A stretch of DNA of 53,351 bases, filler included, from Malassezia furfur (taxonomy: Eukaryota): assembly GCA_052055015.1 (NCBI GenBank). It is 2 parts of 2 records of this genome, joined end to end, with 100 filler letters (N's around TTAATTAATTAA, not from the genome) between each part and the next. Parts side by side here need not be neighbours in the genome. Positions count along the whole stretch, not along the records: positions 26,801 to 53,351 come from JBQJIT010000123.1; 1 more part is not named here. One strand, 5' to 3'. The first letter of the stretch is position 1. Every line of letters begins with the position of its first letter. The notes below the pieces were generated by a model. That model was given only the letters and a program-made list of their open reading frames with translations. It did not search any database and had not been told where the DNA came from. Below are positions 11,501 to 45,554 of this stretch, one piece after another. The translations under genes and the position numbers were made by a program.

Positions 11501-13216
11501 TGAGCGACCAGGCGCCGGGGCTCGCGGCGACGACACGCATGCTCACGGGGCTCGACGGCGTGCGCGTGACGGTGATCCTGAACCCGCGCATGCGCGAGAC
11601 GCGGCTGCCGTTGCAGCAGTTTACGCAGTACGACGCGCGTCTCCGCCCGCTGTTCGGCGACGCGGGGCGCGAGCAGCCGCCCGGCGTGGCATTTGCGCTG
11701 CTCCCGCCGCAGGCCGTGCTTACGATGCAGCTGCTCGCGCCGCGCACGCTCGTGGCGATGGCCGCCGAGGCCGTGTACGACCTGGACAACATCCGCCTCG
11801 CCGACCTGGCGCCGGCCGCGCGCGGCACCGGCGTCGAGGCCGTGTACGCGGTGCAGAGCGTGCTCGTCGAGGGCCACGTACGCAGCGACGACGGCGGCGT
11901 GCCGAGCGGCCTGCAGCTCCTGCTCACGACCGACGACGAGCGCGAGGTGCTCGACACGATCGTCATGGAAAACATGGGCTACTTCCAGTTCCGTGCGCAG
12001 CCCGGCGCGTGGCGCCTGGCCATCCGCCCCGGGCGGAGCGCGGACGTGTACGCGCTCGAGAGTGCGGGCGCCGCGGGATGGTCGAGCGCGCCGGTGGCGT
12101 CGGCGGGCAGTGCGCTCGTCGTCACGTCGCTGCTCGGCAAGCCGCTGTACCCCGTCGTGACCAAGCGCCCCGGGATGGAGTCGGCCGACCTGATCGCCGA
12201 GATGGACGCTCCGATCCCGACCGACGTCGCGACGTCGCGCCGCGGCGGGCACGCGGACATCAACGTGTTTACGCTCGCGAGCGGCCACCTGTACGAGCGC
12301 ATGACCTACATCATGATCCTCTCTGTGCTCGAGCACACGCAGCACTCGGTCAAATTCTGGTTCGTGGAAAACTTCCTCTCGCCGTCGTTCAAGGCGTTCA
12401 TCCCGCACCTCGCGGCCGCGTACGGTTTCCGCTACGAGATGATCACCTTTGCCTGGCCGCAGTGGCTGCGCGCCCAGACGGAGAAGCAGCGCACCATCTG
12501 GGCGTACAAGATTCTGTTCCTCGACGTGCTCTTCCCGCTCGACCTCGACCGCGTCATCTTTGTGGACGCGGACCAGATTGTGCGCGCGGATCTGTACGAG
12601 CTCGTGGAGATGGACTTGCACGGCGGTACGTGTGGACGACTCACCCAGCGCCGTATGGCTACCCCCCGATGGGCGACGACAGCGAGGACATGGACGGCTT
12701 CCGCTTCTGGAAGCAGGGCTACTGGCGCAGCTTTCTGCGTGGCCGGACGTACCACATCTCGGCGCTGTACGTCGTCGACCTGCACCGCTTCCGGGCGGTG
12801 GCCGCCGGTGACATCCTGCGGCGGCACTACCAGCGCCTCACGGCCGACAAAAACTCGCTCGCGAACCTCGACCAGGACCTGCCGAACCACTGTACGTCAC
12901 ACACACTCACCCAGTGCAACACGTCCTGCCCATCTACACTCTCGACCAGACCTGGCTGTGGTGCGAGACGTGGTGCTCGCACGACTGGCTGCCGCAGGCC
13001 AAGACCATCGACCTGTGCAGCAACCCCAAAACCAAGGAGCCCAAGCTCGACCGCGCGCGCCGCCAGATCCCTGAGTGGAACGTACTGGACGCGCAGGTCG
13101 CCGCGCTGGCCGCACGCGTCGCCCAGAACGCGAGTGCCGCGTCGGCTGCGGGCGCCGTGCCGACCGCCACCGATGCGGCCGAGCCTGCTGCGGAAACGGT
13201 GCACGACGAGCTGTAG
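8560..13216 (+). CDS. UGGT: UDP-glucose:glycoprotein glucosyltransferase (UGGT/Kre5, GT24)
   Basis: Signal-like N-terminus [16 protein letters not shown]. Motifs [70 protein letters not shown] and IDLCSNP, with C-terminal HDEL. Two 23-nt introns (12626-12648, 12892-12914) join the three frames. Confidence 0.96.
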
Positions 13217-15299: not shown

Positions 15300-16492
15300 A
15301 TGCTACGACGGCTCGCGTGCGCGCTTGGCATGCCGAGAGGGGCGTGTGGCGCAGTGCGCTATTTGTCGTCGGGTCCGGCGCGCACTTCGGTCGCGACGCT
15401 ACCGCGGCGCACCGTGCTGGAGCTCGAGGGCCGCGACACGTTCAAGTTTCTCCAGGGCGCCATCACCAACAATGTCCAGCGGCTCGAAGAGGAACGGCGC
15501 GCAGGCGACGTCGCGCGCGACGTGTTCTATGCCGCATTCCTCAACCCGCAGGGGCGCATGGTTGCCGATGCCCTCTTGTATCACATGGTGCAAGCCAAGG
15601 ACCCTTCGGTGCTGATCGAGGTCGACTCGCAGATCCAAGGCGAGCTGGTCAAATTTCTCAAGCGCTTCAAACTCCGGTCCAAGTTTCGCATCACGGACGT
15701 CTCGGACGCATGGGATGTTCGGCAGGTGTGGGGACCGGGTGCTGAAGCGCTCATAGGTAACACACCCACCGACGACCCCCGCACCGTGGCCGTCCGCGAC
15801 GTGCGCGCACCGTCCATGGGCTGGCGTGTGCTGAGCCCTGCGGGCGAGACACGTACGTGGCCGACTCTCACACAGCCTCGTTCCTGGCATCGGCCGACCA
15901 GGTGACGCACGAAGAATACACCGTGCATCGCATGCTCTCGGGTGTGCCCGAGGGCGCCGACGAACTGGCCAGCGGCGCTAGTCTGCCGCTCGAGTGCTGT
16001 GTCGATTACATGAACGGAGGTACGTCGCGAGACTAACTCCAGTCGATTTCCACAAGGGCTGCTATATTGGCCAGGAGCTCACAGCCCGCACGCATTTCAC
16101 CGGGCTCATTCGCAAGCGGGTCATGCCCGTACTGCTGACGCGTCCTGACGAACCGTACGTTTCGCTTGGCCTGACCCAGCGCGCCGCAGCCGCCACAAGT
16201 CGATCCTGCTCGCATCACCGAGCTCCCCGCCCGTGGCGCAGATGTGCGGCTGACCTCCGCCAACCAGGCCGACACTGGCGGCAGGCCACGCCGCGCACGG
16301 TCCGCCGGCAAATTCCTGGGCGGTGTCCAGAACGTGGGTCTCGCTCTGCTCCGCCTCGAACAGGTGGCACAGACGCAAAGCGGCCCTTCCGCGCCTCAGC
16401 TACTGATCGAATGCGCGGACGGTGCCACCGCCCAGCTGCATGCATGGCGGCCAGAGTGGTGGCCTGCAGACACCGACGGCCACAGCGAATGA
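15300..16492 (+). CDS. IBA57: Mitochondrial Fe-S assembly factor Iba57/Caf17 (YgfZ family)
   Basis: Presequence-like start, [22 protein letters not shown], and [19 protein letters not shown] after splicing introns 15853-15875 (23 nt), 16020-16042 (23 nt) and 16155-16179 (25 nt). Confidence 0.93.
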
Positions 16493-16593
16493 GCGCGCAC
16501 CATATACCAAGCCTTGGCATCCCATAGCGCGTCCTCCACACGTGGCCAATTTTTCCCAAGGCACCGCGCCCTGTCCAGCCTTCACGAGATCTC

Positions 16594-18587
16594 ATGAACC
16601 CGGCAGCGCGCGAGGCGCCCTATGCGCCGATGCCAAGAGCGTCCGGCGAAGAGGTCGGCGTATGGCGCGATGTCGAGGGGTTCGAAGACCCCAACATCGC
16701 TGAGACGTCGTATGCGCCTCAGGACGCGCATCACGACAGCAGCGCGCACCCCTCACTCCATGCCGTCTTCAATGCGGTCCATGCGCGCTCCAAGAAGCGC
16801 GAAGGTGAGCACAAACACCTGACAGAGCACGGATTCGATGTGCCTGTGAAGGTGGCCCACCTGTTCAAGCGACCCGTCGTCCGGCAATGGCTATTCAAGG
16901 GCAATCTGTTCCGCGAGCAAGACGAGCGCATTCCGTCGCGGTTCGAGCTCTTCTTTGACCTGATGTTCGTCGGCATCGCCCACGTCGTTGCCGAGGGAGC
17001 TGCTGAAGATTACTCGGGCTTTAACGTGCTCAAATTCGTGATGGAATTTTTCCCTGCCTGGTCGGTGTGGTTTGACGTACGGACGTTCCTGAACGTGCAC
17101 GGCACTGACGACATCACCGAGCGCCTTGGCCTTCTTGGTGTCATGGTCCTACTTTCCGGCTACTCGGCGAACGCAGCGGCTCTGGAAATTTTCCACTGCG
17201 GACCGCCTCGGGAAGTGCTTGCGCGAGGTGGCCAATGCGCCGAAACGAGCGAAGCGCTGGCCAAGCGGGCGGCCGGCGAGAGTGTGAGCGATCGCATCGC
17301 CGAATACTACATTGGGGCAGGGTACTGGTTTGGAGAAGACTATCAAAGACTGATCCGCTCGGCCGTTGCATTCTACCTCATCTGGCGTTTGTTCCGGACG
17401 CTATTGTACGTTTACTATGGGTTTGCACTGCCCAAATTCCGCTCTGCCATGTGGACCAATGCCGTGGTCAAAGTGGTAACATCCGTCTTTTACTTTCCCA
17501 TCCTTGCGCTATGGGATCCTGGCATGATTGTTGGACTGATGTTCGCCGGTATGGCCGCCGAAACGCTCAATGGGTTTTTGGCCTTGGGACTATTATGGTT
17601 TCAGAACGAGATCCGTATACGGAGGGACAAGGAGCCACTGTATATCCCTGCATTATCCCAAGAGCATGCCATTGAGCGCATTGTCCTTTTCGTCCTGGTT
17701 GTTGTCGGTGAAATGATCATTAGCTCGACCTACGTTGCGACGGAACATACGTATGGCGCCTCGCAGCGGTTCGGGCGGTCGGCGCTGGCGATCATCTGCT
17801 CGTTCATGCTGATCTGGTTGTATTATGACGCGGACAGTTCGCGCACCTACCAGCATGCACTTCGGCGCAATGCACTCACTTCGCTTTTGTTCAATGTGAT
17901 CCATTTCCCCCTTTCTGCCGCCCTGATCCTTGCCGGTGCCTCGCTGTCAGAGCTGATCAAAGGCAAGGAAGAAGATGGCGGCCTGTTGTGGTACTTTAGC
18001 GGGAGCTGCGGCACAGTGCTTCTCTGCATCACCCTGCTGGGTCTACTCCACCGCAACTTGGACCGCAAAAACAGCACACTGCTGCCGCGCTGGATACGAC
18101 TCGGCGCACGCATTGTCGTGGGTGTACTAATTACATTACTCCCCATCATGCGCGATACCTGGCTTACACATGAATTCCTGGCGGTTTGTGCTGGGATGCT
18201 GGCCTCGCTGGTTATATTCGAGACCGTCTCCAAGGTCGGCGCGGTGGGCCGCCGCTTTGACGAAAAAATGCGGCGCTTGTGCGCCGTGCCAAGCTCACAA
18301 CCCTGTCGAGGCGCAACCCTGCGGAAATGCGCGCGATGAAGGAGGCCCGTGCACAGCTGCGCGCCATGGGCGTCGTGGAAAGCCCACCGCTACCCCACGT
18401 GGAGAAACCGACGCCCGAAGACGAACCGCTGCGTCCCCTGCGGTTGCGCCGCACCCTCTCTTGGCACCCCTACGACGGGTTGACCCTTGGCGAAACGGGC
18501 GAGGAAGATGTGGGGATGGAGGGCGAACTAGGCCACCTGGAGATGAAGGAGCTAAGTACCGGCCAGAGTTGGGCCTTCGCTGCATAA
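16594..18587 (+). CDS. LtrA (low temperature requirement A) family multi-pass membrane protein; apparent 1-nt frameshift near 18263-18268
   Basis: FELFFDLMFVG, ERIVLFVLVVVGE and WLYYD motifs with many TM helices. The ORF runs to 18339, but a plausible C-terminus continues in another frame to 18587. Confidence 0.8.
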
Positions 18588-18599
18588 TGTGTATATAAA

Positions 18600-20947
18600 T
18601 CAATGCTGGCGTGCCCGATCAACCATACGTCCATCCGCGAGCGCGATTACCACGGCGAGATTGTCGGGTGCCGAGTGCGCGTCCTCCTTGACTGCCTTGG
18701 TGTCCACTTCGGCGTTGTTGCCGTCTAGTTGGTTCGTGTATTTCTGCGACGCCGTATCATGCATCGAGTGATGTTCGTTTCCAGCCACAAACAGGGCTTC
18801 GCGAATACCGGCAAAACTGTTATCAATGACGAGAGGCGTTGCACCGTTCGTGTTGGGCCCGTCTAGCCCATGGCACAGGTCGTATGCACGCTGCACGGCC
18901 GTGTCTGTCTTGGCAGACAGGTGTTTGGAGGCGCTCATCGAGTCGGCGCTTGTGTCTGCCGACAAAGCACCTTCGGACGTGTGAGACGAATCTGCAGCAC
19001 CGTTCATGCGCTCGCGAAGTTGTTTCCAGCGGTAGATATAAGAGGCACCGAGCAGGTACTTGCGCACGATGGTCGACATCAGCTCACCGGCCTCAAAGTC
19101 AACGACAAAGTCGCCATCCAGCAGGGTAGTGTATCCATCGTTGCCGTTGGCAAGGTAGCCACGCGTGACGACATTGTACTTCTTGTCCAGCTGCAGAGGC
19201 TCTTTGATACCTGCAGGTATGCGGTGAATAGTTACCACGTCGTCGTCCGCCTCGCCAGACGACACAAGCTTAAACTCGTTGCGGATCTTCATTTTTAACT
19301 TCTCGCTCGAGGAAAACTTGCCGTCGAACGGCAGGCGCAAAAAGTCGACACTCACGACGCGGTGGAAGGGCTCCTTGGACGAGTCCCAGACAACGCGCAT
19401 GCCGGAGATCTGTGGGAAGCGCCCTTCTTGCTTAGGGTACTGGCTAAATCCGTTCTCGAGCGCATCCCACAGCTGCTGGCCCGTAAGTTGCTTCACCACG
19501 ATCGGATCCTCGAACGGCATGATTTCGAGGATGTTGCTCAGCGTGATTTCACCGGGCCCAAACACGGAATCGCTGCGCAGCGAACCGCCGCAAATCAAGC
19601 AGCAGTCGGCTACACGTTCGCCTGCGCCCATCGTCTTGTTGCTCTTTTTTTGCATGCGTAGCATCGTCTCGATCGAGATGAGCAGGATATCAGAGACAAA
19701 GTCGCCCAGTGGTGACTCCTCCATGCGTACGTTGCTTGCACGGGCGTCCCACGGAGTCAGTGTATAGGCCACAGGCTGTCCTACCGACTTGGACACGTGG
19801 TCCATGAGGTTGTCCAGCATCTTTTTGAGCTCGGGCTGCGTCGGATCGTCGGGGTGGATGGTGTGCCGCTTGACTGCGTTAGGGCACGCACGTACCTCTA
19901 AGGCCGGTAATGGTACGGCGCCGCACGGAGTTTTGCGGCGCCGACAGGGTAAGTTCGACCTCGCTCAGGTCGTGGAAGTCGGTCCCGCTCTTGATTATAT
20001 ACGTGTTCTTGTCATTTTCGATACCTGGCATGTCCATGCAGAAGTCGTCGCCCTCGTACGTATCCACGCCGCGGCTCACGTAGTAAAAATGGTCGTGGCC
20101 GCCAAGCACCAAGTCCACACCTTGCTCGTTCGCGTCTGTATTTTTTACTGCGCCGAGTTCGTTGGCGATCAGAATATCATTTGGAATGCGGCAATGCGTC
20201 GCAGCAATGATTATCTCGCACTGCTCACTGCCCTCGCGCAGCTCCTTGGACAGTTTACGGGCCACTTCAACCATGGACCGATACTCGAAGTGCGCTGGGA
20301 AGCCTGGCACTGTTTCCAGCCACTCTCTACATCAGCATTTAGTGACATACTCCTCGACCAGCCCAATGATGCCCACCTTGACGCCCTTGACCGTCATGGT
20401 AATGTACGGCAAGGTGCCCTCGATCTGCTTGTCCCGTGCGTCGAGTTGGTCCGAGCGCGGCTCGCCCGACGGGCGCCATGACGCATCCACCACATTCGCA
20501 AAGAGCCACGGGAAGTTGTTTTGTCCCATGAGCGTGTAGAGATGCGGATATCCAAAGTCCCAGTCATGGCTGCGTGAGGCGTCGGCACTTACTTTCCCAG
20601 ACACGCGGCGTCGACCTGCATAGCATTGACCACGGGCACCATATGCGCACCGCGTGTGATACTGCTTTCGACACTTGGATTGAATAGGTCCCCAGAAAAG
20701 ATACAGAGCCCATTCCGGTCGCGCTTCTGGTGCTCCTCCCACTCAAAGGGGGGATTGGGCACCGTGCGCTGGCACTCTTGTCCCTTTTCGTGCCACGTTT
20801 TGCGAATCTCATTGATTTTCGCCGCGAATTGGTCGGCGCCCAGCTCATGATCCGACTCGCGCACTTTTTGCCGCACGCGATATACGCTGTTGTTAGCGTA
20901 ATCGCCTACTCGTTGAAGTGCAGCACTGGGATCTGCACGCTCGTCAT
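18600..20947 (-). CDS. 5'-nucleotidase family (calcineurin-like metallophosphoesterase plus 5'-NT C domain)
   Basis: Spliced motifs LHFNDVY, FSGDLFNPS, CLGNHDWDFG, DLVLGGHDH, KSGTDF, GGSLRSD, GRFPQISG and YLANGNDGY. Introns 20887-20909 (23), 20570-20592 (23), 20327-20350 (24) and 19874-19895 (22). Confidence 0.92.
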
Positions 20948-38053: not shown

Positions 38054-39079
38054 ATGGACGAGCTGCGAAAAGCGTATCCGGACCGAGTGCCGATCCTGCT
38101 TGCCAACGGGGTGCCCTACCTCTGGGAAGCAAGAGACGTGGAATTCGTTAGAACACAGCACAACTTGTGTGGCCTACTAAGCGGCACCTCTCCGCTGATC
38201 CCTCAGCAAAATGTGTTCTTGGGCCTGCCGCTTCGTCTGCTTCCAGAAGAGGTGGTGTTGTTGCTCAGGCGGAAAGCCGCGGTGCTGATTAGCGACAAGG
38301 ACGCCTACGAGATTCCTAGGGAAGACGAACGTGCGCAGTTCCTTGAACGTGAAGCGCAACAAATCCTTTCTCAGAAGGAACAGCAGCTCCAGCAGCAAGA
38401 AGAGCACCGGCAGCGTATTGAGGCTGCGCTCACGGAAGACACGGCGGACGCCAAGGCGCTTGAACGCCGCCGTGCACGTCAAGCGGCCAAAGAGGCTAAG
38501 GGTGCCAAAGTAGTACCAGTGGCACCGCCGTCGCAAGAGGACATTATGGCGAAGATGGCTTATGTTCACCATATCCCTAATACGTCCGCTGAAATTCCGG
38601 GCTACCATCCGGCGACCTCTAACATGCAGTCGGAACCTACCAATGCATACCTCACACTACAGGCTGCACAAGCGGCTGGTGTTTGGTCGTACCCCAGTAC
38701 GTTGCAAGAACGCGCGCGCTGTGCCACGTTTGAAGCGCTTCACAGCAAGGGATACTTTCTGAGCACTGGACTGCGTTTTGGCGGCGACTTTGTGGTGTAC
38801 CCCGGAGATCCGCTACGATACCATTCACACTATACGGCGACCATTCTTGCGACGCCGCAGCAGCCTATGGCCGCCTACCATGTTGTCGCCTCGGGTCGCT
38901 TGGGTACGGCGGTCAAGAAATCGCACTTGTTGTGCCAGGCCAATACGGTGACGCTGGATGATACGGTGGCACTTGAGCGGCGTTTGGCAGGGTATGACGA
39001 TGCGACAGATGCAGCACCGGCGCCGCTGTGGGGTAACGTTGAGTACTGGAGCTTGGCGTGGGCCGGTTTTGGCACATAG
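38054..39079 (+). CDS. SEN34: tRNA splicing endonuclease subunit Sen34
   Basis: PQQNVFLGLPLRLLPEEV, GLRFGGDFVVYPGDPLRYHSH and GRLGTAVKK. Confidence 0.95.
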   Translation: MDELRKAYPDRVPILLANGVPYLWEARDVEFVRTQHNLCGLLSGTSPLIPQQNVFLGLPLRLLPEEVVLLLRRKAAVLISDKDAYEIPREDERAQFLEREAQQILSQKEQQLQQQEEHRQRIEAALTEDTADAKALERRRARQAAKEAKGAKVVPVAPPSQEDIMAKMAYVHHIPNTSAEIPGYHPATSNMQSEPTNAYLTLQAAQAAGVWSYPSTLQERARCATFEALHSKGYFLSTGLRFGGDFVVYPGDPLRYHSHYTATILATPQQPMAAYHVVASGRLGTAVKKSHLLCQANTVTLDDTVALERRLAGYDDATDAAPAPLWGNVEYWSLAWAGFGT

Positions 39080-42986: not shown

Positions 42987-43668
42987 TTAGCCCGAGAACT
43001 CGGCCCGCCGTGGCACCGACGAGGCAGTCACCGGCTCCTTTTTCACCTCGCCGGAGGCCAAACTTGCATCGTAGCGCTCGCGGATCGAGGCAAACACCTG
43101 GTCGAGATTTGCGATGGCGTCGCGGAACGCGTCGACCGCCGACACGGTGTGCTCTGCGGTTAGTCCGTTCCCAAACGCGAGGAGAATTCAGTAGGAACAA
43201 TTGGAAATGCGTATAACTGCCAGTCCATCGCCATAGCTCGGCTTCGGAAAGGTGTCATCCCAACACCAATTGGCCTAGACACTCACCATTCATCTGGACA
43301 CGCATGTGGATTTTGCTCTCGGATGGATGGGGAATGCTGCGTGTGAGCGGGCGGCGACAACCTACGTATAACCGCAAAACTCCACGCGTGGGCTGCCGTT
43401 AGCATGCTCTTGGTATACATTGCCCCTCAGAAACGAAGAATTCCAAGTTTGTATTCCCCCATGACGCTTGCAAAGCAGGTCTCGGGACACAATGGGTATA
43501 ATCTTCGGGGCCTGAGTCGACGTACTCTTTCATCAGCATGTACCGCAGCGCATTGCCGAGGGTATGATCTTCATCCTGGATACAGAACGTGACGGCGGTG
43601 AGCGCAGCGTCGTGTCCAGGAAGCAGGGTGATCTTCCCATGCACGGCCGAGGCGTCCAGCTCGTCCAT
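42987..43668 (-). CDS. RPC19: RNA polymerase I/III shared subunit AC19
   Basis: [31 protein letters not shown] after splicing introns 43393-43525 (133), 43337-43365 (29) and 43154-43286 (133); TAA at 42987-42989. Confidence 0.94.
43185..43265 (-). ncRNA. Intronic box C/D snoRNA, snR41/SNORD62-like (guide for the 18S Am541 equivalent)
   Basis: C-like GGGAUGA (43261-43255), D' CCGA, C' GCGAUGG and D CUGA (43191-43188). Guide UCCAAUUGUUCCU is complementary to the conserved 18S AGGAACAAUUGGA (recalled from memory). Ends approximate. Confidence 0.82.
43422..43512 (-). ncRNA. Intronic box C/D snoRNA, snR57-like (guide for the 18S Gm1572 equivalent)
   Basis: D box CUGA (43430-43427) preceded by ACUUGGAAUUCUUCGUUU, complementary (1 GU, 1 mismatch) to 18S AACGAGGAAUUCCUAGU (recalled from memory). 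Degenerate C box CCGAAGA and a GCCCC/GGGGC terminal stem. Ends approximate. Confidence 0.78.
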
Positions 43669-43774: not shown

Positions 43775-45554
43775 ATGTCGTGGAGACTGGGCAAGAGTAT
43801 GTGGGGAGACATTGACGCAGAATTGCGCGAAAGCTCGAGCTTTGCATTTGGGCCCCCGAGGGTTCCGTCGCCCGTCGACCGCTCCACGACGCCAAAACCC
43901 AACGCCCCAGCACCGAGTACGAAGGAGGCCTCGACGCCGAAGCCTGCCCAGGCGCGGGGGGACGATGCTGCGCAATCGGACCTACTCGCGGTGAGTGTCG
44001 TGACTGCGCGCGGTCTGTCGCTTCCCTCTGGAAAGGTGCTCGCAGAAAAATCGGGTGATGCGCTACAGAGCAAATCGCTGCGCGAGCGCCAAACCTTCCT
44101 ACCCTACGTGGTGTTGGAATTCGACAAAAACGAGGTGCTGATCCTTGCCTCGAGTGGTGACCTATCAGCGCCGCAGTGGCAGTTCACCGCCTACTTGTAC
44201 GTGCCGTGGCTGACGCAGTGACATCTCGCGCAAGACCGAAGTCAGCCTACACGTCTACCTGCGCGGCGAGGCCGTTGCACCGGCAGCCGCGACCAGTTTC
44301 GGCATCATGGGCATGTTCCGCAGCTCGACACCCAAAGCGGAGGACCAGCATGGGGGACAGCGGAAGCCGATGCGGGACCTAATGGGGGAGAACGACGTAT
44401 ATCTGGGAACGGCGAAGCTGGTGCCGTCGTTTGAAAGCGCGCGCGCCATGGACACCTGGCTGCCAGTCTCGGGCGGTACGGGCCAGATCCATGTGCAGCT
44501 CGCATTCAAGCCACAGCAAGGTCATTCGTTGTCGATTGAGTCGTTTGAGCTGCTCAAAGTCATCGGCAAAGGCAGCTTCGGCAAGGTGATGCAGGTTCGC
44601 AAGCGCGACACAAACCGGATTTACGCACTGAAAATCATTCGCAAGGCGCACATTATCTCACGCTCCGAGGTGACGCACACGCTGGCCGAGCGTACGGTGC
44701 TTGCCCAGGTCAACAGCCCATTCATTGTGCCGCTCAAGTTCTCCTTCCAGAGCCCCGACAAACTGTATTTGGGCCTCGCGTTTGTCAATGGTGGCGAGCT
44801 CTTCCATCACCTCCAGCGAGAGGGGCACTTCTCCGAGGAGCGCGCTCGCTTCTACACAGCCGAGCTCTTTTGTGCACTCGAGCATCTGCACGACTTCAAC
44901 GTGATCTACCGCGACCTGAAACCGGAAAACATCCTGCTCGATTACACCGGGCACATCGCCCTGTGCGACTTTGGTCTGTGCAAACTGAACATGGGCGACA
45001 AGGAGACGACGCACACCTTCTGCGGTACGCCCGAGTACCTCGCGCCGGAACTGCTGCTGGGTCGTGGTTACACCAAGTCTGTCGATTGGTGGACGCTTGG
45101 AGTGCTGCTTTACGAGATGCTCACCGGCCTTCCGCCGTTCTATTCGGAGGACGTCAGCGAGATGTACCGCAAAATTCTCCACGACCCGCTCACATTCCCC
45201 CCCGAGGTGCAGCCTGACGCACGCGACTTGCTGACGCGTCTGCTGCACCGCGAGGCAAGCGAGCGCCTCGGCTATGGACCACACGGCGCTGCCGAGATTA
45301 AAAGCCATCCATTCTTTACCAAGCATATCGACTGGGCACTGCTCCTTGCGAAAAAAGTGCAGCCGCCGTACAAGCCCGGGGTACAGTCGACGCTGGACAC
45401 GTCCAACTTCGACCCGGAGTTTACGAGCGAGCCTGCCCAAGACAGTGTGGTGGACGAGAGCCATCTGATCAGCGCTGCAAACCAAGAACAGTTCTCGGGC
45501 TTCAGCTACAATGCTGGTGCCGAGAGCGTGAGCGTGGGCAACTCCTGGCAATGA
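43775..45554 (+). CDS. YPK1: AGC Ser/Thr kinase Ypk1/Gad8
   Basis: C2-like LPYVVLEFDKNE, IGKGSFGKV, YRDLKPEN, DFGLCK, TFCGTPEYLAPE and hydrophobic motif FSGFSY; 22-nt intron 44197-44218. Confidence 0.95.

Follow-up and report, generated by a model that had tools for sequence, protein, structure and literature searches.

RPC19 of Malassezia furfur as a predicted host of two small nucleolar RNAs of the box C/D class in introns of equal length

How do two introns of one small gene come to have the same length and the same internal geometry when their sequences are different? This question is raised by RPC19 (AC19), the gene for a subunit shared by RNA polymerases (Pol) I and III, on the minus strand of record JBQJIT010000123.1 of Malassezia furfur (assembly GCA_052055015.1). 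The record is part of the 53,351-nt stretch of DNA that we analyzed, called the window below. Both long introns of the gene, A and B, are 133 nt. An earlier reading of the sequence by itself (the sequence-only reading) had proposed that each contains a small nucleolar RNA (snoRNA) and that a lineage-specific rule fixes the distance between snoRNA and branch site. Our analysis supports the prediction of two box C/D snoRNAs, an arrangement that is common to Malassezia as judged from predicted genes, and the spacing is best read as a lower limit.

Two predicted snoRNAs in the introns of RPC19

Each intron was searched as a 133-nt sequence against 4227 Rfam families. The sole match of intron A was snR57 (RF00474), obtained over the full model length with 15.5 bits; the best match of intron B was snR41 (RF01218), with 17.8 bits and an E value of 0.99. 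No other snoRNA family was matched in either intron. Neither reached the gathering threshold of its family (50 bits in both cases), and the snR41 match aligned 59 nt with a 55-position model deletion. The guide GGAAUUCUUCGUUU of the intron A RNA was identical to the snR57 family consensus, and the guide CCAAUUGUUCC of the intron B RNA, together with the CUGA that follows it, was identical to the snR41 consensus. Both RNAs have a box C near the 5′ end, a box D near the 3′ end and at least 10 nt of antisense to ribosomal RNA (rRNA). Counted from the box C GA through box D, the core spans 77 nt in the intron A RNA and 72 nt in the intron B RNA (coordinates in Table 1).

To locate the predicted targets, we used rRNAs of other eukaryotes as stand-ins for those of Malassezia. 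They were found with a small-subunit (SSU) motif (519-536) plus 14 nt of the intron B guide. At least 30 contigs (L018-L047) in prokaryote assemblies or metagenome-assembled genomes (MAGs) contained this pattern, and all five that were scanned with Rfam were eukaryotic rDNA. Guide A formed 10 contiguous base pairs (one G-U), and the fifth base before box D fell on G1572 in L029, whose SSU is 1800 nt, and on G1567 in L020. Guide B formed 15 bp (two G-U) for the window sequence and 12-16 bp across relatives, the fifth base falling on an A at SSU 537-539. It is known that snR57 guides Gm1572 of 18S rRNA and that snR41 guides Am541 and Gm1126 (PMC8307265). The intron-encoded CD13 of Neurospora crassa guides Am538 and is listed as 'snR41-I' and U62 (PMC2780460). 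The predicted targets of guides A and B coincide with the published Gm1572 and Am541/Am538. In this respect the Rfam matches and the rRNA pairing agree with the sequence-only reading, which had named RPC19 as a dual snoRNA host and compared it with yeast snR57 and snR41. The occurrence of eukaryote-type 18S contigs under bacterial assemblies and MAGs is likely to reflect contamination; a 24-kb contig labelled as a Bryobacteraceae MAG matched the pattern three times, corresponding to three 18S copies, and its large-subunit rRNA has a group I intron.

A Gm1126-type second guide was not found in the D′ regions of the intron B RNA when these were tested against the stand-in rRNAs and against shuffled sequences. 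In three taxa 26 to 64 of 100 shuffles did as well as the D′ stretch itself, and in the window 3 of 100 did, at another site. There was also no conserved target on the stand-in rRNAs for the D′ regions of either snoRNA. Since the intron B RNA carries the Am541 guide alone, it resembles the split N. crassa CD13, 'snR41-I' and human U62. Two further features of this RNA were noted. The D′ stretch of the window intron (43236-43254, minus strand) can form 11 bp with the stand-in rRNAs at about SSU 191, with nothing comparable in the relatives. All four taxa that were aligned (below) share the conserved element TATACGCA, immediately 5′ of the Am541 guide (43208-43215, minus strand), and the yeast snR41 consensus has UAUAC adjoining its guide; the element could be part of box C′ or could provide extra pairing to pre-rRNA.

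Rfam gave no match in the whole window at the gathering level. At E ≤ 10 neither of the two snoRNAs was listed, and the whole-window scan is therefore too insensitive to exclude further snoRNAs. We also scanned the window for a box D preceded by at least 11 bp of pairing to the rRNA stand-ins and by a C-like box upstream. Only the snR41-like RNA combined such pairing with a plausible C box; on these stand-ins the snR57-like RNA does not reach the 11-bp cut-off. The other matches (nine of 11-12 bp without a C box and one with a weak CGGACGA) were at about the chance level. A weak Rfam match to the archaeal C/D family sR30 at 38252-38314 (plus strand; 18.3 bits against a threshold of 38, E 2.9) was unsupported by the rRNA-pairing scan and is probably due to chance.

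The identity of the host follows from its predicted product. With splice signals located by script, removal of introns of 133, 29 and 133 nt leaves a frame of 387 nt that would encode 128 amino acids (aa), 120 of which are identical to the 128-aa model 'RPC19 [Malassezia furfur]'. In a database search, exon 1 was 96% identical to this protein and 98% identical to 'AC19 [Malassezia brasiliensis]', and it matched Pfam RNA_pol_L_2. The match of the 128-aa M. furfur model to RNA_pol_L_2 scored 102.2 bits and took in the whole domain (1-74 of the 75 profile positions). Two shorter database models, each without one exon, reached only 64-65 bits. The top three PDB matches of the 128-aa model were RPAC2 of Schizosaccharomyces pombe, human and Saccharomyces cerevisiae (E 7.6e-29 to 2.4e-20), ahead of RPB11. 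Because the RNA_pol_L_2 domain is full and RPAC2 structures match best, ahead of RPB11, the minus-strand gene is, by its predicted protein, RPC19/AC19 of a Malassezia of the M. furfur/M. brasiliensis group, a shared Pol I/III subunit.

We compared seven named Malassezia AC19/RPC19 protein models (P0003, P0004, P0010, P0014-P0016 and P0027). Only one, the 128-aa model of M. furfur, has the complete exon set. Two are without the 27-nt exon 2 (119 and 122 aa), one is without exon 3 (115 aa), one has kept a tiny intron as coding sequence (137 aa), and two are shortened at the N terminus (98 and 91 aa). Gene prediction thus seems to have been misled by the long snoRNA introns and micro-exons of RPC19, which suggests that snoRNA-bearing long introns mislead annotation in genomes with tiny introns.

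Table 1. Coordinates of RPC19 and of the elements predicted in its introns (positions along the window)
Feature	Position	Strand	Remarks
RPC19/AC19 (RPAC2) coding region, splice model	42987..43668	minus	ATG at 43668, stop at 42987-42989; 128-aa translation
RPC19 exons (4), splice model	43526-43668, 43366-43392, 43287-43336, 42987-43153	minus	
Intron A, 133 nt	43393..43525	minus	GTACGT...CTAACGGCAG
Predicted snR57-like box C/D snoRNA, ~90 nt	43422..43511	minus	Includes 5-bp terminal stem GCCCC/GGGGC
Box C of snR57-like RNA, AAGATTA	43499..43505	minus	GA from intron base 23, after 3-nt bulge
D guide of snR57-like RNA, GGAATTCTTCGTTT	43431..43444	minus	Invariant in four taxa
Box D of snR57-like RNA, CTGA	43427..43430	minus	Intron bases 96-99
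Branch motif CTAAC, intron A	43398..43402	minus	Intron bases 124-128
Tiny ordinary intron, 29 nt	43337..43365	minus	Between GYT and IPHP
Intron B, 133 nt	43154..43286	minus	GTGAGT...CTAACCGCAG
Predicted snR41-like (Am541-type) box C/D snoRNA	43183..43266	minus	Ends approximate; weak terminal stem
Box C of snR41-like RNA, GGGATGA	43255..43261	minus	Invariant in four taxa
D guide of snR41-like RNA, TTTCCAATTGTTCCTA	43192..43207	minus	
Box D of snR41-like RNA, CTGA	43188..43191	minus	Intron bases 96-99
Branch motif CTAAC, intron B	43159..43163	minus	Intron bases 124-128

The arrangement in relatives of Malassezia furfur

When aligned AC19 proteins of Malassezia were used to scan metagenomes, 17 RPC19 loci were found. 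Both guides lay inside RPC19, on the gene strand, in all six Malassezia-like loci, which represent three distinct taxa (L001, L002 and L004; L003 and L005; L017), and both were absent from all 11 other loci. Guide matches of 10-13 bp in L007, L011 and L012 were rejected, as they are located in coding sequence or the 3′ tail; similar matches of 10-13 bp occurred in L009, L013 and L014, and L014 shares that of L011 and L012. Further copies of the guides came from read-through open reading frames (ORFs), that is, unspliced gene calls, five of which contained the translated snR57 guide and D box and one the snR41 guide.

Each intron was aligned among four taxa (the window, L001, L003 and L017). 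The invariant columns were the 5′ splice site, box C, the D′/C′ area, the D guide and box D, and the spacer past box D was unalignable. GATT.TAC was invariant in intron A, and CCAATTGTTCCT.CTGA was invariant in intron B. Box D of intron A is ATGA in L001, L003 and L017, as in the Rfam snR57 consensus. The terminal stem of the intron A RNA is kept in all four taxa, with 5, 8, 4 and 5 pairs; where there are 4, a mismatch and 3 further pairs follow. Its fourth pair has changed on both strands. The intron B RNA has only two pairs beside the kink-turn (k-turn) in three taxa and none in L017.

Among the 11 other loci, coding sequence was continuous across the site of intron A in all and across the site of intron B in eight, the remaining three being uninformative at that site. 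An intron at the protein position of the 29-nt intron of the window, between GYT and xPHPSE, was present in two non-Malassezia loci (L015:595-831 and L016:2001-2238). From these predicted gene structures, the position of the tiny intron looks old and the two snoRNA-bearing positions do not. The predicted dual snoRNA arrangement in RPC19 is common to Malassezia and occupies two positions without an intron in the other sampled eukaryotes. It is therefore most likely that the snoRNA-bearing introns moved into RPC19 in the ancestor of the genus, as far as comparison of predicted loci can tell. An extra small intron between KITL and LPG was seen in L001:1997-2021 (25 nt), L003:2043-2072 (30 nt) and L017:2043-2092 (50 nt). 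It was absent from the window gene (about 43620) and from the furfur-like read-through ORFs P0005 and P0006, which looks like intron loss in the lineage of the window.

Distance between box D and the branch site

The motifs located by script confirmed the geometry that had drawn attention to the locus. In both introns CTGA occupies bases 96-99, which leaves 34 nt to the 3′ end, CTAAC starts 24 nt past the D box (27 nt to the branch A), and 5 nt lie between the motif and the end of the intron. The two introns had further been called otherwise unrelated in sequence, and this is essentially right: the alignment of A with B gave a z of 2.8 (reached by 3 of 300 shuffles), compared with 10.6-12.3 for orthologous introns. 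If the position of the D box and the length of the 3′ flank were each free over about five values, as in the compact relatives, we roughly estimate that exact identity of both distances would arise by chance about 1 time in 25.

The distances in the four taxa are given in Table 2. A fixed, lineage-specific spacing, as had been suggested from the window, is not supported by the gaps of 43, 55 and 78 nt in the orthologous introns of L003 and L017. L001 has equal intron totals, yet its D boxes are at 94 in A and 97 in B. In read-through ORFs of five more taxa the D box of intron A was found at bases 96, 91, 91, 89 and 101; for one of these ORFs (P0012) a D-to-3′-end distance of about 45 nt is implied. 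Across relatives, box D lies between 89 and 144 from the 5′ splice site. Five of the eight introns have the GA of box C at intron bases 23-29, and the remaining three have it at 39, 51 and 68. The gap between D and branch motif was within 24-26 nt for five of the six introns of the three compact taxa (the window, L001 and L003). Ordinary introns of RPC19 measure 25-30 nt in these taxa and 43 and 50 nt in L017.

Table 2. Intron lengths and box D distances in four taxa (nt, intron A/intron B)
Locus	Intron length	D to 3′ end	D to branch motif
Window	133/133	34/34	24/24
L001	135/135	38/35	26/25
L003	165/138	56/37	43/26
L017	219/217	95/70	78/55

The spacing is not fixed in the genus. The pile-up at 24-26 nt occurs only where introns are generally smallest. 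The best reading of these predicted introns is that 24-26 nt in the compact taxa would be a lower limit rather than an optimum. Two independent introns may have shrunk to the same minimal design of splice signals, short spacers and snoRNA. This would have occurred in a genome with ordinary introns of 20-37 nt, and the D-to-branch gap would have stopped at a floor of about 24-26 nt, possibly the room that the branch-site machinery needs beside the assembled small nucleolar ribonucleoprotein (snoRNP). The exact equality of A and B in the window would then be partly luck. By analogy with other intronic snoRNAs, Pol II would transcribe the RPC19 pre-mRNA, the core snoRNP proteins would bind the C/D k-turn, and splicing would free each intron as a lariat. 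After debranching, exonuclease trimming would be halted at the snoRNP, and the mature RNAs of about 84-90 nt would guide 2′-O-methylation of 18S rRNA, the intron A RNA at the equivalent of Gm1572 and the intron B RNA at the equivalent of Am541.

The size of ordinary introns in the window was taken from a motif-based census, which gave 36 candidates with strong signals and open flanks; they measure 20-37 nt, many of them 22-25 nt (examples: 12626-12648, 19874-19895 and 44197-44218). In candidates read by eye the branch-like motif ends about 3-6 nt ahead of the end of the intron. Of 45 long candidates listed, 27 were checked, and most of these lay within long ORFs or in gene-end or intergenic stretches. 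One, at 16334-16606, was rejected since it takes in the end of one gene (16492) and the start of the next (near 16595). The claim that introns A and B are the only ones above 37 nt in the window fits this census; it is unproven, as 18 long candidates fall outside the 27 checked and introns with weak signals would escape a motif census. The corollary that long introns flag non-coding RNAs holds for both long introns, its scope being the window. The G+C content of the window is 60.5%, and 88 of its letters are N.

Could selection nevertheless hold box D in place, with about 24 nt to the branch motif and 34 nt to the 3′ splice site, for the sake of splicing-coupled assembly? The exact identity of the two window introns would be accounted for, and P0005, a read-through ORF of a close relative, implies the same D-to-CTAAC count. 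Gaps of 25-26 nt recur in three introns of L001 and L003 despite unconserved spacer sequence, and in mammals it is established that assembly depends on position, the optimum being about 50 nt (PMC8162545). However, the orthologous introns of L003 and L017 with 43, 55 and 78 nt have fully conserved guides and boxes, and P0012 and the range of 89-144 nt between 5′ splice site and box D point the same way. A true rule would not tolerate a threefold range of gaps within one genus, and we consider it unlikely. Pure coincidence is the opposite explanation: the snoRNA hosts would be real, and introns drifting in size would have come to equal lengths and box positions by chance. There are just two such introns in the window, equal or nearly equal totals have arisen from unequal parts in L017 (219/217 nt) and L001 (135/135 nt), and a chance of about 1 in 25 (our rough estimate) is unremarkable when many windows are scanned. 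This explanation deserves more weight than a rule, and we still doubt it. Five of six introns of compact taxa lie within a 3-nt band (24-26) although their spacers are unalignable, the 5′ flank also piles up at the low end in the same introns, and flank sizes follow the size of ordinary introns in each taxon. These pile-ups and the tracking of size point to a boundary and not to free drift.

Two other explanations would remove the question altogether. If an intron scaffold had been duplicated or gene-converted, so that A and B were recent copies, their identical length and motif positions would be expected, as would a weak excess of similarity (z 2.8, 3 of 300 shuffles). Each intron is, however, far nearer to its L001 orthologue (z 12.3 and 10.6) than to its neighbour, and A and B differ in guides, C boxes and terminal stems and were already distinct in all four taxa. 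Moreover, a z of 2.8 is what shared splice signals and boxes at equal positions would give, and recent copying is hardly credible. If, instead, the conserved intron elements served the splicing or regulation of RPC19, the family matches would be fortuitous. That would suit Rfam scores below threshold and RNAs whose expression is deduced from the gene sequence. Yet among 4227 families the best match of each intron is the family whose guide it carries; box C, box D, the 3-nt bulge and a covarying stem stand in the canonical layout; and the fifth-base rule hits the right nucleotide identity at both published methylation sites. We regard fortuitous matches as very improbable.

Several points weigh against the explanation that we prefer, namely two snoRNAs, a spacing floor and an origin in the ancestor of the genus. 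Both Rfam scores are far under gathering, with E values of 7.9 (A) and 0.99 (B) even for a 133-nt search. Guide A pairs over just 10 bp on the stand-ins of non-Malassezia eukaryotes, and it also pairs elsewhere, over an equal length at SSU 360 in L029 and over 11 bp, rich in wobble pairs, at 358 in L020. The splice sites, the snoRNA ends and the expression of both RNAs are predictions from sequence. The gain of the introns in the Malassezia ancestor is likely at most, as Malassezia alone represents the Ustilaginomycotina among the sampled loci. As to the floor, we infer its steric cause, the pile-up is incomplete (intron A of L003 has a gap of 43 nt in an otherwise compact taxon), and eight introns of four taxa are too few to separate a floor from chance. 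The introns of L017, 219 and 217 nt with different internal geometry, indicate that near-equal lengths arise by luck. With these points set against the evidence above, we hold with moderate confidence, for the three parts taken jointly, that introns A and B would each encode one box C/D snoRNA, of predicted snR57 type and predicted snR41-I/CD13/U62 type, respectively.

A bolder proposal is that extreme shrinkage would have brought the snoRNA-bearing introns of Malassezia to their physical minimum, that 24-26 nt between D and branch, together with 20-26 nt before box C, represent the smallest clearance that allows snoRNP and spliceosome on one intron, and that RPC19 gained both introns with their snoRNAs from two ancestral non-coding cluster hosts. 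We put this combination forward tentatively, as possible and on balance doubtful. If the first part were true, the smallest clearance between snoRNP and spliceosome would be about half the mammalian optimum. If the gain from two cluster hosts were true, the output of a Pol I/III subunit would be tied to guides of 18S methylation.

Comparison with known snoRNA hosts

In S. cerevisiae, snR57-snR55-snR61 and snR41-snR70-snR51 are separate polycistrons (PMC3596301), and this bears out the sequence-only reading, which had placed the two guides in separate clusters there. In the sampled euascomycetes, basidiomycetes and zygomycete the snoRNAs of both clusters are reported to be all intronic and to lie in spliced hosts of little coding potential; the sample included Ustilago maydis, Coprinopsis and Phanerochaete (PMC3596301). 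The intron A RNA has the same guide, GAUUA-type C box and predicted Gm1572 target as S. cerevisiae snR57, and it has a terminal stem. It differs in its setting, which is the intron of a protein-coding gene, whereas snR57 is part of a polycistron in yeast and its cluster is reported to have non-coding hosts in the other sampled fungi (PMC3596301).

The intron B RNA shares with N. crassa CD13 a guide before box D and a predicted intronic location (PMC2780460). The N. crassa supplements name no host gene for CD13. In yeast snR41 the guide sits before D′ and there is a second guide for Gm1126, whereas the intron B RNA has a single guide, and RPC19 takes the place of the yeast snR41-snR70-snR51 cluster as host.

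Mammalian intronic C/D snoRNPs are best placed about 50 nt upstream of the branch point, and Aquarius/IBP160 aids their assembly (PMC8162545). As in mammals, there is one predicted snoRNA per intron, near the 3′ end and upstream of the branch site. Unlike the mammalian rule of about 50 nt, the distance is 24 nt in the window, about half as long, and 24-78 nt over the eight Malassezia introns. The series of 133/133, 135/135, 165/138 and 219/217 nt can be regarded as a natural experiment on the limits of proximity between a C/D snoRNP and the branch site.

Among the matches listed for literature searches on Malassezia snoRNAs and on snoRNA introns of RPC19, there was no report of RPC19 hosting these snoRNAs. 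The main text of 'The fungal snoRNAome' (PMC5824354) names neither Malassezia nor these snoRNAs, and the S. pombe hosts given in Table S8 of PMC8476143 do not include RPC19. According to at least one genome paper the snoRNAs of Malassezia were unannotated (PMC5209728). The predicted arrangement would add a genus-wide and seemingly undescribed host gene to the small set of fungal protein-coding snoRNA hosts, and two guides that belong to different clusters elsewhere would now share one gene of the ribosome pathway.

Conserved fungal protein-coding hosts include RPL7 (snR59/snR39) and NOG2 (snR191), which are found also in Malassezia sympodialis (PMC8476143). RPC19 resembles them in that a protein of ribosome production would be co-transcribed with a guide for rRNA modification and in that the intron has been kept in an intron-poor lineage. 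The intron positions of RPL7 and NOG2 are common to 72-82% of fungi (PMC8476143), whereas the two RPC19 positions were found only in Malassezia-like loci. The RNAs predicted here add members to snoRNA families that are already known, and their host gene is new.

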